Shown here: positions 25,472 through 30,816 of the stretch, one piece after another
Position numbering within the stretch: the stretch's first letter is position 1
Layout: every line of letters begins with the position of its first letter
Source: Archaeoglobus sp.
GTDB lineage: Archaea; Halobacteriota; Archaeoglobi; Archaeoglobales; Archaeoglobaceae
Assembly (NCBI RefSeq): GCF_017656475.1
Contig: NZ_JACDNT010000002.1
Location: 33,160-97,159 of the forward strand
Length of the DNA stretch: 64,000 nucleotides
Reading direction: 5' to 3'
Translations under genes and position numbers: made by a program
The notes under the pieces: generated by a model
Databases searched by the model: none
The model's input: the letters and a program-made list of their open reading frames with translations, nothing else
What the model was told of the DNA's origin: nothing

Positions 25472-26530
25472 CTACCACTTGTCCTTTTTTCTCGAATTCA
25501 TTATGACAGCTATTGCTATTGCAACTAAGGCTACTCCACCACCTGCCACGGCAACTGTGGTTAGATCAGCATCAATCAGACTTTTCTCCCTGATTGATTT
25601 CTTAAGCTCCTCGACTTCCAGCTTCAGCGAAGAAAGAGAATCCTTAATCTCGTTTATTTTTGTATCTGCAGTGGTAAACTTCCCTTCGTTAACCAGCCTC
25701 TCCACCTCATCTATTGCCTCATCAACACTGCCAATGTTTGAGTACAACTCCTCGTATCTGGCCTTAACCTCCTCATAGTTCTCGATCCTGTCTCTCTCGT
25801 TTTCGACTCTGTACTGAATGAGAATGAGTTCTTTGTTGATTTCAGTGAGCGAAGCTTTCAGCTCGTCGATTTTGGACTGGTAGGATTTCATATTGCTGCT
25901 AACGTAGCACTCCTCAACAGCATCCTCTATATCTTCCATCAATTCCTCAGCATCCCTGTACTTTTCATCATTGTAAAGCAGCTTGGCCTCCTTCAGCTTT
26001 TTCTCATCGGCACACTCTGCATCTTCAAAATTCCTTATGTCTGAGTAAAATTTCTGCTTGTTCACAACCGTAATTTCCAGTCCGATTAGCTCTTCTTCCT
26101 CAGTCTCCACTTTCAGCACCGTCAGGTTTTCAAGCCTTGAGTCGATTACCGGCACATATCCAGAAACTGTCAAAGCAATTTCATCCACACCATCATCGCT
26201 TTCAGGGACAAAAATCTTGAGTTCTGTTTCACCCCCATCGGAGCTATACTCATCCTGAGGTGAGGGGTAGAGCACTTTCTTTCCATCCCGATACTCAACG
26301 ACAACTGCAAGCGCTGAGGAGTCAAGTTGGGTAAAAACATGATACTCCTGGTCGTCTGCCAGCTTGGCGTCGCTTGAGGAGTCGGGAGTTACTGTGCAGG
26401 TGAAATAGAGGTATTCTCCGCCGAAGTAGTAATCGTCGAATGTTTTGGAGCAGGAGTAGTCGAAGTCATAAGCTGAGGCTGTGGTAAATAGCAAAAGAAC
26501 AGGAAGAAGAATTAACGGAGCTCGTCCCAT
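25472..26530 (-). CDS. Membrane-anchored surface protein: beta domain, helical region, C-terminal TM
   Basis: Signal peptide, beta-rich N-domain, heptad-rich acidic helical region, TM helix, basic tail RKKDKW; paralog of the upstream gene. Confidence 0.8.
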   Translation of the reverse strand: MGRAPLILLPVLLLFTTASAYDFDYSCSKTFDDYYFGGEYLYFTCTVTPDSSSDAKLADDQEYHVFTQLDSSALAVVVEYRDGKKVLYPSPQDEYSSDGGETELKIFVPESDDGVDEIALTVSGYVPVIDSRLENLTVLKVETEEEELIGLEITVVNKQKFYSDIRNFEDAECADEKKLKEAKLLYNDEKYRDAEELMEDIEDAVEECYVSSNMKSYQSKIDELKASLTEINKELILIQYRVENERDRIENYEEVKARYEELYSNIGSVDEAIDEVERLVNEGKFTTADTKINEIKDSLSSLKLEVEELKKSIREKSLIDADLTTVAVAGGGVALVAIAIAVIMNSRKKDKW

Positions 26531-27702
26531 TTTCTTCTCCCTCCTCTGAACTTTATTGCTGCCACCACCACTACTACCCCAACAATGATGCCTGCAATGA
26601 TGTACAGCGGTGAAATTGGCAGTTCAATATTGAGTGATGGTAAGCTGAAGCCACCCTCCTCTGACTTCTCGTTTTCAATCTTTGTCTTAAGCTTGTCAAT
26701 ATTGCTCAAAAGGTCTTCAACCTGTGGTTTCAACTCCTTGAGCTTTTCGTAAGCATCAGAGTATTTTTTATCTTCTATCATCTGATTTGCATCGTCAAAC
26801 TGACTCTTCAGGCTATCATACTGACTTTTCAGTTCAGCGTAGGTTTCTACATAGGCGGTGTAGTTCTTGCTGTCAGCAACTTTGTTGAGAGCGACTTCTA
26901 CAACGCTCAGGTTCAGGTACGCTTTGTTGAGCATGTCCTCAACGTAATCCCTCTCAGTCTCGGCCTTTAGCTTGTTGGCCTGTGAAGCAATCTCGTCAAG
27001 CTTCTCCTCAGCCTCGCTTATCTTCTCATCCGCTTCAACATATTTTCCCTGAGACACGAGGCTTTCAGCACTCTCAAGGAGAGAGTATATCTCATCAAAA
27101 TCAGACTGGTTGTACTGCACTCCTGCCGATTCCAAGTCTGACTTAAGGGAATCTGCATCTTCCCTTACCTTTTGAATGTCCTCGCTGAACTTCTGTGTGT
27201 TCACAACCTTTATTTTCAGGGGTGGGAGCGCATCTTCCTCAGCCTCTTCGACTGAAACATTGACCACATCGATACTTTCCAGTCTTTCGGAAACAGAAGG
27301 TACTGTGCCAGACAAGTTCACTTCTATGCTTCTAACACCTTTCTTCTGTTCGTTGACATAAAAATATTTGACCTCAATTTTGACTTTATCATCATTCAGA
27401 AACTCTTCGGTCTTGCTTCCGAGGTAATAGTTGACTGCTATAATCCACTTCGTACTTTCGAGAGAAGTTTCGAAGGTGTAAGTACGTGGATTATCCCTCT
27501 CACCCCCAATTAACTCCATATCGTCATCCGTATTGGGAGTTATCCTGTATGTTACAGTAACTTCGTCTCCCGGCAAATAGTAATCCTTCCCTGGTTTTAT
27601 CTCGGTTTCAGGAGTGTCGAAGTTATCCTTTGTAAGGGTTTCAAGAGCTAGGGCTGGAGTAGCCAGTATGAGCAGGAGCAGTACTGCCACAATCTTCTTC
27701 AT
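26512..27702 (-). CDS. Membrane-anchored surface protein: beta domain, helical region, C-terminal TM
   Basis: Signal peptide MKKIVAVLLLLILATPALA, long helical region, TM, tail RRKWDELR. Confidence 0.8.
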   Translation of the reverse strand: MKKIVAVLLLLILATPALALETLTKDNFDTPETEIKPGKDYYLPGDEVTVTYRITPNTDDDMELIGGERDNPRTYTFETSLESTKWIIAVNYYLGSKTEEFLNDDKVKIEVKYFYVNEQKKGVRSIEVNLSGTVPSVSERLESIDVVNVSVEEAEEDALPPLKIKVVNTQKFSEDIQKVREDADSLKSDLESAGVQYNQSDFDEIYSLLESAESLVSQGKYVEADEKISEAEEKLDEIASQANKLKAETERDYVEDMLNKAYLNLSVVEVALNKVADSKNYTAYVETYAELKSQYDSLKSQFDDANQMIEDKKYSDAYEKLKELKPQVEDLLSNIDKLKTKIENEKSEEGGFSLPSLNIELPISPLYIIAGIIVGVVVVVAAIKFRGGRRKWDELR

Positions 27703-27740
27703 AAACAGAATACAGAACCGTAGCTTAAAAACTTTATCGT

Positions 27741-27768
27741 AAAATAAAAAAGGAAAAAATTTGGAGAA
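27741..27768 (-). terminator. U-rich terminator candidate after the S-layer-like gene
   Basis: Minus strand reads TTCTCCAAATTTTTTCCTTTTTTATTTT directly after the stop. Confidence 0.5.
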
Positions 27769-30675
27769 TTACTTTCTCCTCAGCAGGTATGCTACTGCCA
27801 GCAGTCCGGCAATTGCGAACACTGCCTCGAAGCCGGGCACTCCACCGCCCTGCTGTGGTGTTGTGGTTGTAACCGCGGTGGTTGTGGTCTCTTCAACGGC
27901 TGTGGTTGTTGTAACCGCGGTGGTTGTGGTCACGGCTGTGGTTGTTGTAACCGCGGTGGTTGTCGTAGCTGGTGCGGTTTCGAGGAGTTCGACTGTCTTG
28001 ATCACGAGCAAGTCATCGTGAGCAGTTTTTTCTCTAGCTAAGGACTCTGTCGGATCAAGATAATACACTTCTTTGATGTATTCTGTATCTATCTCATCTC
28101 TTGGAGTCTTAGCCGTGTCACGGACATACAACTTGTAGGTTCCTGGGCTATAACCAGCAGTCTCTATAGTAATCTCTCCGACGCCCTCTGAGTTAACTAC
28201 AACCTGGAAAACATCTTCGATGTTGTTTCCGGTAAATACTACCCAAATTCCGTCATAGCCTGAGATTTGCCTGTTCGTAGTTACCTTGATCTTCAAGGTG
28301 TCTCCAACTACTGGGGTTTCTGGTTCCAACGTCACATCGAGAGTCTGCTGCACCACTTCGATCAGTTTCTGAGTTTCGGCTGAATCAACTTCTTCATACT
28401 CCTGACCTGTGTAGATGAACAGTTTAACGGTTAGCACATAGAGACCCGGAACGAGTCCTTCATCAAGGCCCTCATCGTCAGCAATTTTGTCTAAATCAAG
28501 CGTAAACGTCGCTGTATTGTTGGCATCCAAGTCATACGCTGCATCGTCATAGTCTTTGTAATCTACATTAAGTCCTTCAAAGACGTACCCAACCTTCACT
28601 TTCTGGCGGTCACCAGGTTCAACAACTACTGAGACATCTGTCTCACCGTTGTACGGGAGGACTCCTGGCACTACTATCTCCTTTACCCACGGATCCTTAA
28701 CGACTATGGAGAACATCTTCTGAGCATCTGCTGCCCTATCGACATAATTTACTTGCCCATCAGTGATGTTTTCTGGTGCAACAAGATACACATAGTACGT
28801 TCCTGGATCAGCTTCTGCGTCAACATCCAATTCAAACTCTAAGTTGCCATCTTTATCTGCCATAACCTGGGCAGTATTTGGACACACGCCGTCATCAAGG
28901 TCTGCCTCTGACGCTACGTGTTCACTACCAAGATAGAAGTAGTCCTCTTCGTCAGAATAGATACACACGATTTGGTCAGGAGATGTTGTACCTGAGAATA
29001 CTAAGCTGTCGCCCCTGATTACGGTCGTCTTATCAACCGTAACATCCAGTATCTGCTTGACCACCTCAACTCTCACACTTGCAGTAAGTCCCAGCCCCAT
29101 AGTATCTTTTGCCTTAAACCTGTAGTCATGCAACTCTGCGTTGTAAGCTACATCAAATTTGAACTCGGCCTTACCTGTGGCGTCTACTCCCTGGGTGAAC
29201 ACACACTCATCCTCGCTGGAGTCATACCAGCCACCCATGTCTACACACAGATCATCTGGAGTATCGTTAGCGTATAGATCACCAAGGTCGTCCTCACTTA
29301 TTGTAAGATTTACTGGAGTATTGATCTTAAAGTTCGTTTGCACTATAATCTTGAAGGAGTCACCCCTGCTCACTGTGGGTTTATCAACCGATACCGTAAT
29401 TGTCCCCTCTTTCAGCTCCATTAGATCGACAATCTCATCCTCTGCAACTCCATCGCCATCCGCATCTATCCACACTTTCACTTTGTAGTAGCCAAGCTCA
29501 AGATCTCCTGGGACTTTGGTTCCAAAGCTATCTATCTTGAACTTGAATTCACCTCCCTCGTCGATGTACGCCATTATTGGACCTACCTTAAGCACATCAT
29601 CCATTGTTGTGATGTTCAACCAAGCTACATTTTCAGCACCGTTTTGAGTATACTTCAGTGTGAAGTTGTCATTCTTTGTACCACTCTTTGCGAGTGTTGC
29701 CTGACCAGTAATGACCAAGTCCGTTCCTTTCACATGGGTGTCGGGTACATTCAACTGGGTTATCTCAGCCTCGACAACACTAAATACGGCTGTAGCTTCT
29801 GATCTGTTCTCATTGTGTTTGTAGTTCACGTCAATCTTCGCTACATAGACTCCCTCTGGAAGGTCCGATGCAGGAACTTTTTCTGATATAACAGCCCAGA
29901 AAGGCGCAGCGGTTGCTATCATTGCATTGCTGGAGTTTCTTGCATACTCGCCCGCCTTAATTGGCACCCACCATGTATCGTCCCCACAGGCTTCACTGAG
30001 GGTGTGGTAGCCCCCTGCTGATGCGTTACACAGCTCGATGTACCTGTCGTTTCCTGTGACGAAGACCTTTATCTCCGAGACGGCGGTCGATGTGCTCATG
30101 GACGCTTCAACCTTAACCCAGTCACCGATGGCCACTGACGATTTGTCGACCGAAATGGAAACCTCAGGTTTCCCTGCAACTGGCGGGTTAACCTTGAATC
30201 CCAGATGTGTCGGATCTCCATTGGTAACATTATGACTATACCCCGAAGTTGTGTTGTAGACAAACGGGAACACGACATAGGTTCCAGAAACATCTGGTGT
30301 AAATTCCTTATTCAGCTCAGCCCCTTCACAGTCTACCTGAACCTTCAGTAAAGCATTATCAAGTAAGTCATCGTAGGTAGCATCACCAGCCCAGAAATCA
30401 ACGAAATCAGATGCCTTAACGACAACCAAGAACCTTGTTGTCTTACATGGGTCTTCTCCAGTTGATACCCACGAACCCGTTATAGTTACTGACTCACCGA
30501 GATTTATTTCATCGTCACTCAGCTTTAAATTCAGTAGATGTACTGGATCACCTACCGTTATGGGTCCATCATCCACTGTTACATTTTCTATACTCGGTGT
30601 AAGGGCCATCGCTGGAGTCACTGATATCACTAAAAGCGCCGCCATTATTACGCCTATTATTCCTAACCTTTTCAT
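27769..30675 (-). CDS. PGF-CTERM cell-surface glycoprotein (S-layer-like, multiple Ig-like domains)
   Basis: Signal peptide, acidic beta-rich repeats, many N-x-S/T sequons, Thr-rich linker, VPGFEAVFAIAGLLAVAYLLRRK sorting signal. Confidence 0.9.
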   Translation of the reverse strand: MKRLGIIGVIMAALLVISVTPAMALTPSIENVTVDDGPITVGDPVHLLNLKLSDDEINLGESVTITGSWVSTGEDPCKTTRFLVVVKASDFVDFWAGDATYDDLLDNALLKVQVDCEGAELNKEFTPDVSGTYVVFPFVYNTTSGYSHNVTNGDPTHLGFKVNPPVAGKPEVSISVDKSSVAIGDWVKVEASMSTSTAVSEIKVFVTGNDRYIELCNASAGGYHTLSEACGDDTWWVPIKAGEYARNSSNAMIATAAPFWAVISEKVPASDLPEGVYVAKIDVNYKHNENRSEATAVFSVVEAEITQLNVPDTHVKGTDLVITGQATLAKSGTKNDNFTLKYTQNGAENVAWLNITTMDDVLKVGPIMAYIDEGGEFKFKIDSFGTKVPGDLELGYYKVKVWIDADGDGVAEDEIVDLMELKEGTITVSVDKPTVSRGDSFKIIVQTNFKINTPVNLTISEDDLGDLYANDTPDDLCVDMGGWYDSSEDECVFTQGVDATGKAEFKFDVAYNAELHDYRFKAKDTMGLGLTASVRVEVVKQILDVTVDKTTVIRGDSLVFSGTTSPDQIVCIYSDEEDYFYLGSEHVASEADLDDGVCPNTAQVMADKDGNLEFELDVDAEADPGTYYVYLVAPENITDGQVNYVDRAADAQKMFSIVVKDPWVKEIVVPGVLPYNGETDVSVVVEPGDRQKVKVGYVFEGLNVDYKDYDDAAYDLDANNTATFTLDLDKIADDEGLDEGLVPGLYVLTVKLFIYTGQEYEEVDSAETQKLIEVVQQTLDVTLEPETPVVGDTLKIKVTTNRQISGYDGIWVVFTGNNIEDVFQVVVNSEGVGEITIETAGYSPGTYKLYVRDTAKTPRDEIDTEYIKEVYYLDPTESLAREKTAHDDLLVIKTVELLETAPATTTTAVTTTTAVTTTTAVTTTTAVEETTTTAVTTTTPQQGGGVPGFEAVFAIAGLLAVAYLLRRK
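27863..27965 (-). repeat. Tandem ~18-bp repeats encoding (AVTTTT)n
   Basis: gtaaccgcggtggttgt occurs three times, alternating with acggctgtggttgtt. Confidence 0.85.
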
Positions 30676-30738
30676 ACTTCTCTACCTCCTTTTCTCACCT
30701 TTCATCTCACCTTCCACTATATAAATTCTCCCATTCTT

Positions 30739-30778
30739 TGGCGGCGGGAAAGCTACAGCATCAGCTAACCCGCCGCCA
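30739..30778 (-). promoter_or_regulatory. GC-rich 5'-terminal hairpin in the leader of the S-layer-like mRNA
   Basis: tggcggcggg (30739-48) and cccgccgcca (30769-78) form a perfect 10-bp inverted repeat, with an inner AGCT/AGCT stem. Confidence 0.7.
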
Positions 30779-30800: not shown

Positions 30801-30816
30801 TATATTTAAACCTTTT
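30801..30816 (-). promoter_or_regulatory. BRE-TATA promoter of the S-layer-like gene
   Basis: Minus strand AAAAGG-TTTAAATATA, about 30 nt upstream of the hairpin 5' end. Confidence 0.65.

Follow-up and report, generated by a model that had tools for sequence, protein, structure and literature searches.

Stalk proteins encoded behind an S-layer gene in Archaeoglobus belong to a cetZ-linked family: a candidate trans-envelope tether

We analysed a window of 64,000 nucleotides from Archaeoglobus sp. (assembly GCF_017656475.1, contig NZ_JACDNT010000002.1, positions 33,160 to 97,159; genome 96.5% complete), in which a minus-strand cassette at window positions 25472-30675 encodes a 968-amino-acid (aa) surface glycoprotein, BIG, and two paralogous stalk proteins, A and B. 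The original prediction had read the cassette as a multi-component S-layer in which A and B act as spacers analogous to SlaB of Sulfolobales. Judged from sequence, A and B belong to an undescribed, unannotated, phylum-wide family of single-pass membrane proteins. The ancestral and far more widespread neighbour of this family is cetZ of the CetZ1 type, which encodes a tubulin-family protein, and not a surface-protein gene; its most constrained part is the extreme C-terminus, predicted to lie in the cytoplasm. We propose that A-type proteins may form a trans-envelope tether between the CetZ cytoskeleton and the S-layer, a reading to which we assign about an even chance. Below, X denotes the A-type gene in relatives, and genomes, genera, families and loci carry the labels G, g, f and L, the window genome being G000.

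Family range, cetZ linkage and the conserved tail

A search with A recovered the family in 86 of 96 Archaeoglobi genomes and 20 of 21 genera. Neither A nor B exceeded the cut-off of any Pfam or NCBIfam family model, the nearest ESM Atlas clusters of the family are all labelled 'hypothetical protein', and, among named proteins, A comes nearest to hypothetical proteins of Archaeoglobus fulgidus and A. neptunius (60-73% identity). A profile of the beta domain found only 74 matches among 1.84 billion representative proteins; 34 of them end in [WFY]DEL[KR] and four in WDELG, about a dozen are B-type, and four carry PGF-CTERM instead. Across the phylum, this profile matched 106 of 401 sampled genomes, while a profile of short forms (~260-290 aa, one helical bundle fewer) matched 185 of the 401, in 75 of 121 genera. 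The features of the cetZ-adjacent family, namely a signal peptide, a beta domain with T..L/G.VP/VVN motifs, one or more helical bundles, a transmembrane (TM) helix and an aromatic-D-E/K-L ending, are all present in A and, except for the ending, in B. B-type paralogues stand directly behind A in at least 14 genomes.

Two of the beta-domain proteins, P0054 (784 aa) and P0074 (903 aa), carry this domain N-terminal to PEGA and Ser/Thr kinase domains (Pkinase, E ~4e-46); P0074 also carries TPR repeats, and for one of the two the source gives the name 'protein kinase [Archaeoglobaceae archaeon]'. Because the beta domain is found on PGF-CTERM proteins and on such PEGA-Ser/Thr-kinase receptors, it is probably extracellular.

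Inspection of 20 Archaeoglobi loci from different genera revealed cetZ directly upstream of X, co-oriented and separated by 9-23 nt, in eight of them; this upstream neighbour encodes a CetZ of ~390 aa (PF21011 E 1.4e-67; Tubulin E 7.9e-29). Manual comparison of the coordinates of the best family match with those of high-scoring CetZ genes placed cetZ immediately before X in 35 of the 86 Archaeoglobi genomes with the family, distributed over 10 of 20 genera and including the sister family f2. Genomes with the adjacency, out of those with the family, were as follows:

g2: 5 of 6
g3: 7 of 7
g4: 3 of 3
g5: 2 of 2
g7: 1 of 1
g9: 1 of 1
g12: 4 of 5
g16: 7 of 7
g17: 4 of 5
g19 (sister family f2): 1 of 1
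g1, g6, g8, g10, g11, g13, g14, g15, g18 and g20: none

A UbiX-type flavoprotein gene follows X in several loci. In the window genome, cetZ sits on a different contig (C25), with a ubiX-like gene directly after it; since that gene elsewhere comes after X, the gene order is read most simply as a loss of X, in the window lineage, from its place between cetZ and ubiX. A sister-family locus (L051:5286-6305, G092) carries a second tubulin-like gene directly upstream of cetZ-X, encoding 339 aa (MRVLAIGCGGAG...) with a weak CetZ_C match (100 bits).

The linkage extends beyond the class. We inspected 20 loci drawn from ~45 outgroup genomes with a beta-domain match and 20 more, picked for family diversity and long contigs, from short-form matches, and found cetZ directly upstream and co-oriented in 19 of 20 loci of either set. 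A scan of a species genome collection for the WDELG form picked up 80 loci, all with Methanomicrobiales titles (Methanomicrobium, Methanoculleus, Methanoregula and others), with cetZ directly upstream in 76 and X starting at a contig end in the other four. Tail counts from these 80 loci are circular, since the search pattern was the tail itself, and only the adjacency counts were used. Altogether, cetZ adjoins the family gene in 114 of 120 outgroup loci. The cetZ beside a YDKLG-ended X at locus L080 scores 718 bits against PDB 4b46_A and 311 bits against 4b45_A, and the window-genome CetZ likewise favours 4b46_A (416 versus 253 bits); we take 4B46 to be Haloferax volcanii CetZ1.

At L080, an epimerase gene lies upstream of cetZ and cofC downstream of X, which encodes a homologue of 270 aa. 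Table S2 of Brown and Duggin 2023 (PMC9856176) gives the H. volcanii order as cofC, arCOG03888, cetZ, nolA and lists the uncharacterised arCOG03888 in 11 of 20 cetZ1 regions. Like the L080 homologue, arCOG03888 thus stands downstream of cetZ1 and before cofC, and its position and size suggest that it may be a family member. Another candidate for the haloarchaeal homologue, arCOG04764 (15 of 20 cetZ1 regions), was rejected because it lies apart from cetZ1 and, judging by its self-score, is probably a smaller protein.

That study analysed cetZ neighbourhoods by arCOG; in its accessible parts, Archaeoglobales are represented by three genomes and by the other CetZ paralogue (AF_1729, Arcve_1880, Ferp_2493), the Halobacteria-like CetZ of Archaeoglobales and Methanomicrobiales is not analysed, and the main text never mentions arCOG03888 (PMC9856176). 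Santana-Molina et al. 2023 give gene contexts and describe no such partner in the sections covered here (PMC9871819). Full-text searches of the literature outside subscription journals returned no mention of arCOG03888, HVO_2203 or HVO_2205 and no published description of the family or of a tether, and among the 24 papers listed, of 31 that contain the term CetZ1 since 2021, no title or abstract deals with a membrane partner.

In a 36-row alignment of A-type sequences, the ectodomain diverges rapidly (26-77% identity); CetZ, by comparison, stays at 71-97% identity. All 36 sequences terminate in [WF]DEL[KR]. Seven columns of the whole protein are invariant (P56, G122, G132, P135, D393, E394 and L395), three of them in this ending, and W392 is nearly invariant. 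Among the 11,839 open reading frames (ORFs; at least 60 aa) of the window genome, A alone ends in this way. Endings across the phylum include WDELG, WDKLGR, WDRLG, YDKLG, WGRL and WERL. B lacks the DEL[KR] ending, and the B-type subfamily begins with MGR.. and ends with ..[DEKR][KRM]W; the tails read RGGRRKWDELR in A and SRKKDKW in B. Basic residues directly follow the TM helix, ahead of the tail motif, and also precede the N-terminal hydrophobic segment. Because both hydrophobic segments are flanked in this manner, the positive-inside rule would place the bulk of A outside and its last ~10 residues in the cytoplasm; A and B are accordingly predicted to be type-I membrane proteins.

The cassette and its products

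The three ORFs of the original prediction are present, with the peptides quoted from them found in the translations; all are co-oriented, and A and B overlap by 19 nt. Features of the cassette, all on the minus strand, are:

30801-30810: TATA-like TTTAAATATA (sequence)
30739-30778: GC-rich hairpin GGCGGCGGG...CCCGCCGCC in the presumed 5' leader of BIG, between the TATA-like box and the BIG Shine-Dalgarno
30684-30690: Shine-Dalgarno GGAGGT of BIG (sequence)
27769-30675: BIG, 968-aa PGF-CTERM surface glycoprotein; signal peptide ~1-24, then several beta-sandwich domains
27856-27969: Thr-rich (TTTTAV)x5 linker of BIG, preceding the sorting signal (sequence)
27772-27840: PGF-CTERM sorting signal of BIG, residues 946-968 (PF18204 match)
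27703-27768: BIG-A intergenic region (sequence)
27741-27759: terminator-like oligo-T runs in the BIG-A intergenic region
27724-27735: AAAGTTTTTAAG, ~22-33 nt ahead of the ATG of A
26512-27702: stalk A, 396 aa; signal peptide 1-19, beta-sandwich 24-167, modelled two three-helix bundles 169-343, flexible linker 344-364, TM helix 365-386, predicted cytoplasmic tail 387-396 ending in WDELR
26515-26544: predicted cytoplasmic tail of A (FRGGRRKWDELR region; family alignment)
25472-26530: stalk B, 352 aa; ectodomain plan as in A, TM helix 322-346, tail ..KKDKW without DEL[KR]

The TATA-like box is a putative promoter of BIG, and the BIG-A intergenic region may combine a terminator with a separate promoter for A. 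The leader hairpin folds at -34.1 kcal/mol (z -3.29; 1 of 200 shuffles folds equally well) and may serve as a leader that stabilises the mRNA of a strongly expressed gene for a surface protein. Contigs covering the region occur in four metatranscriptome runs of one sample; they also span neighbouring genes, may include DNA, and carry neither expression levels nor transcript ends. In two runs they break within the Thr-rich repeat (~27930, within 27856-27969), most simply through a repeat-driven assembly effect.

The paralogy of A and B was correctly recognised in the original prediction (BLASTP: 26% identity across 383 columns, E 3e-19). Both have an acidic ectodomain, a single C-terminal TM helix and a short basic tail. 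Hydrophobic segments span residues 1-24 and 359-388 in A and 322-346 in B, which also has a weaker N-terminal signal peptide. The helical part of A (residues 169-343) is acidic, with 41 D+E versus 23 K+R, and shows heptad-like hydrophobic contrast. AlphaFold2 (AF2) modelled A from the 36-row alignment with a predicted local distance difference test (pLDDT) score of 86.6 and a predicted template-modelling score (pTM) of 0.68. In the model, a beta-sandwich (24-167) is followed by ~175 helical residues arranged as five helices (169-192, 199-217, 221-274, 281-310 and 314-343), a disordered linker (344-364) and the TM helix (365-386), the tail being unmodelled.

In an exhaustive structural search, residues 168-243 and 245-345 of A each aligned separately to three-helix bundles; the best match of the helices was 9rgv_A (Z 13.7, root mean square deviation (rmsd) 1.5 over 94 residues), although by the search tool's own caveat Z values of this size are common among helical bundles and may mean only a common arrangement. 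These results suggest that A is a rod of two spectrin-like three-helix bundles sharing a long helix. Of the stalk plan originally predicted, the signal peptide, beta domain, acidic helices, TM helix and basic tail all stand; a single continuous coiled coil, and with it a SlaB-type long oligomeric one, is at odds with the modelled bundles.

The beta domain of A weakly resembles lectin-type sandwiches. A PDB sequence search with A showed no similarity to any solved chain. Among Foldseek matches, the top hit 2wb7_A (pT26-6p; E 2.6e-5) was set aside as a generic beta-sandwich with low template-modelling (TM) scores (0.17/0.13), and so were the lectin-like sandwiches FedF, Fbs1 and CLIPPER, which likewise gave low TM scores.

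BIG was confirmed as a PGF-CTERM glycoprotein (PF18204, 39.5 bits, cut-off 18.8; TIGR04126, 32.3, cut-off 24.5). It displays the marks of an archaeosortase A substrate: a C-terminal PGF motif, a TM helix, a basic end, and ArtA in the same genome (TIGR04125, 214.9 bits, cut-off 75; G000:C7). It is the largest and best-scoring of five PGF-CTERM matches in the genome; 12 N-X-S/T sequons are present, and the net charge is -94. The AF2 model (10-row alignment; pLDDT 74, falling below 50 across residues 904-951) is an all-beta string of beta-sandwich domains. Foldseek with this model ranked 7ptp_A ('in-situ pentameric S-layer protein') fourth (E 5.8e-23; TM scores 0.26/0.32, the top TM score among the rows listed), a match that is generic because other multi-Ig proteins such as alpha-2-macroglobulins score similarly. 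The H. volcanii S-layer glycoprotein csg (PDB 7ptp) shares with BIG the chain of Ig-like beta-sandwiches, the Thr-rich linker and the PGF-CTERM anchor; the two differ in sequence (12% identity), and a PDB sequence search with BIG returned nothing usable.

Because of the PGF-CTERM/ArtA pairing, the sequons, the beta-sandwich chain and the 7ptp_A match, BIG is probably an S-layer glycoprotein, lipid-anchored via PGF-CTERM and ArtA, in line with the original prediction. According to the available part of a 2022 paper, domain searches detect no S-layer protein in Archaeoglobus (PMC9012536). A further open frame in the window (~208-900; G000:C2:33367-34059, minus strand; 575 aa) resembles BIG residues 662-900 (E 2.2e-17), and its relatives of ~580-600 aa are common in Archaeoglobaceae genomes.

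Linkage to the S-layer gene

Homologues of BIG occur in 84 of 96 Archaeoglobi genomes, and their coordinates were compared with those of X. The original prediction anticipated a conserved linkage of stalk and surface-protein genes, which we indeed observed in 21 of the 86 Archaeoglobi genomes with the family, in three arrangements:

BIG directly upstream of X, in tandem: 16 genomes (G000-G003, G005-G007, G009, G010, G030, G031, G033, G055, G075, G081, G085)
BIG and X divergent: 1 genome (G016)
X, then a ~140-aa secreted protein, then BIG: 4 genomes (G038, G039, G053, G054)

The middle gene of the third arrangement (L042:8716-9159, L052:1988-2419) encodes a ~140-aa secreted protein that matches neither Pfam nor NCBIfam. 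In G081, a gene directly upstream of the BIG homologue (L044:7611-9866) encodes a secreted protein of 751 aa that combines a papain-family protease domain (E 3.9e-43) with DUF333 and NosD/beta-helix domains, that is, an envelope protease beside an S-layer gene.

We placed the tandem arrangement on a quick maximum-likelihood tree of 45 A-type proteins, from genomes with a full A-type ORF at the locus, plus two outgroup rows. The tandem label changes at least three times on well-supported branches, a rough count given that this is a quick gene tree. Within genus g1, the BIG-A-B cassette occurs in two deeply divergent types, while CetZ is more than 90% identical. Identities to the window proteins are:

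G001-G003: X 60-65%, BIG 47-49%
G006, G007 and G010: X 29-33%, BIG 35-36%

One of these cassette types groups in the stalk tree with G085, a genome of another genus. The two types look like the outcome of exchange or rapid turnover of the surface cassette.

Known systems and competing explanations

SlaB, the partner of SlaA, resembles A and B in its signal peptide, beta-sandwich domain(s), helical stalk and C-terminal TM helix, in its gene standing directly behind the S-layer gene, and in a stalk located in the pseudo-periplasm, as set out in the available text of PMC5744192. In contrast to SlaB, which has two or three beta domains and a long trimeric coiled coil, A and B have a single beta domain, and A is modelled, as a monomer, with two three-helix bundles. 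Moreover, the S-layer protein here has a lipid anchor of its own, the tie of the family to cetZ is ancestral, and the family's cytoplasmic end is invariant. Comparison of A and B with Pfam, NCBIfam and PDB sequences gave no SlaB match, although it is unclear whether these libraries hold a SlaB model or chain.

Bitopic tethers of the cytoskeleton are familiar in bacteria, where RodZ serves MreB, and ZipA and EzrA serve FtsZ. With these the A family shares the form of a single-pass protein that is co-encoded with a cytoskeletal filament protein or acts on one. In fold, the A helices resemble the spectrin-like repeats of EzrA, with a poor rmsd (4uy3_A, Z 11.6, rmsd 9.1 over 160 residues; 4uxv_A, Z 10.7). 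Membership in EzrA was rejected on score (PF06160 23.9, cut-off 39.6; NF003409 26, cut-off 562) and on topology: EzrA has an N-terminal anchor and cytoplasmic spectrin-like repeats, the reverse of A, whose bulk is predicted to lie outside with only ~10 residues inside; the candidate partner of the A family is also CetZ, not FtsZ or MreB.

In the tether that we propose, the C-terminal [WF]DEL[KR] peptide would dock onto the CetZ cytoskeleton inside the cell, the TM helix of A would cross the membrane, and a lectin-like beta-sandwich head, carried on the rod and the ~20-residue linker, would span the ~13-nm sub-S-layer space and contact the S-layer or its glycans. A would thereby couple CetZ filaments to the envelope. 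In the window lineage, the gene would have moved out of the cetZ-X-ubiX order to a place after the S-layer gene and undergone duplication; B, in which the DEL[KR] ending has been lost, would serve either as a strut uncoupled from CetZ or as A's partner. Cryo-electron tomography of A. fulgidus, in the part of the report available, shows a 3.7-nm membrane, a ~13-nm periplasm-like space and an 11-nm S-layer (PMC4853940). A modelled 54-residue longest helix, together with the second bundle, the beta domain and the linker, appears compatible with this gap.

To assess CetZ binding, we predicted the complex of G000 CetZ (32-row alignment) with A residues 345-396 (36-row alignment). The ipSAE score was 0.52 (runs 0.52, 0.51 and 0.55), the best of three controls scored 0.00, the runs shared at least 91% of contacts with partner pLDDT of at least 60, and the verdict was 'weak support'. 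Of 157 solved complexes, 116 pass the score mark, as do 2 of 215 mismatched pairs; passing scores of 0.60 or below account for only 18 of the 157 solved complexes and for both mismatches. With the operon evidence as prior, this score raises the probability of binding modestly.

Several observations weigh against the tether. Taken without a good prior, a complex score in this band is more often wrong than right, and the prediction returned no interface. With a lipid anchor of its own, BIG does not need a stalk to hold it. The gene does not stand beside cetZ in the window's own genome, two outgroup loci (L083 and L165) have no cetZ nearby, and 30 of the 86 Archaeoglobi genomes have neither cetZ nor an S-layer neighbour, partly owing to contig ends. 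One lineage (f12) ends differently, in R-G-V/I-Y. The rod geometry of A derives from secondary structure and fold matches, not from coordinates, and related genomes are non-independent samples.

Those 30 genomes would fit an A-type protein that anchors or regulates CetZ at the membrane with an ectodomain unrelated to the S-layer, one that may sense or bind something else in the pseudo-periplasm, the adjacency to BIG being incidental. That the family-wide neighbour is cetZ and not a surface protein speaks for such an anchor, as does the occurrence of the beta domain at the head of receptor-type Ser/Thr kinases; however, three separate arrangements unite X and BIG, and within one genus the two split into the same two divergent types. 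We consider it rather unlikely, while ranking it next after the tether. A plain S-layer strut comes third and seems to us improbable. Here A and B, perhaps as a heteromer, would only prop or space the S-layer, and the cetZ neighbourhood would be historical synteny. In its favour, the S-layer gene immediately precedes the stalk gene in the window and in 16 of 86 Archaeoglobi genomes and is close by in five more, the architecture of beta domain, helices and TM helix is like that in the available description of SlaB (PMC5744192), and the estimated length fits the 13-nm gap. Yet the rest of the family has cetZ upstream, an adjacency maintained throughout the phylum at intergenic distances of a few bases, BIG anchors itself through PGF-CTERM, and the helices are modelled as monomeric bundles. 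A pure extracellular spacer, moreover, would not need the cytoplasmic [WF]DEL[KR] that is the best-conserved and invariant element. The SlaB-like reading of the original prediction holds in outline and for gene order in the window genus, and fails to account for the widespread cetZ neighbour and the conserved tail.

The conserved C-terminus could instead be a sorting or processing signal, or bind another cytoplasmic partner, with the cetZ operon reflecting shared regulation only. B does match the CTERM-type anchor model NF041738 below threshold (20.2, cut-off 22), and the weak complex prediction would suit this explanation; known tripartite signals, however, put the motif before the TM helix, not after the basic cluster at the very end, and no other ORF of the window genome has this ending. 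We judge this explanation very improbable.

Returning to the tether, a broader version, which we hold only tentatively and put clearly short of an even chance, makes the family the envelope coupler of CetZ1-type tubulins throughout Halobacteriota: the ten-residue tail would dock CetZ inside, a fast-evolving lectin-like head on a spectrin-like rod would grip the S-layer outside, CetZ could steer the site of wall remodelling, and the Archaeoglobus gene order would expose the S-layer half. Current work describes the action of CetZ on the cell envelope as unknown. A conserved family whose gene directly follows cetZ1 in Archaeoglobi, Methanomicrobiales and haloarchaea is an obvious candidate CetZ partner, with genetics and CetZ1 imaging in place in Haloferax volcanii. 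If the tether is real, it would be a first case of an S-layer tied through the membrane to a tubulin-family cytoskeleton.

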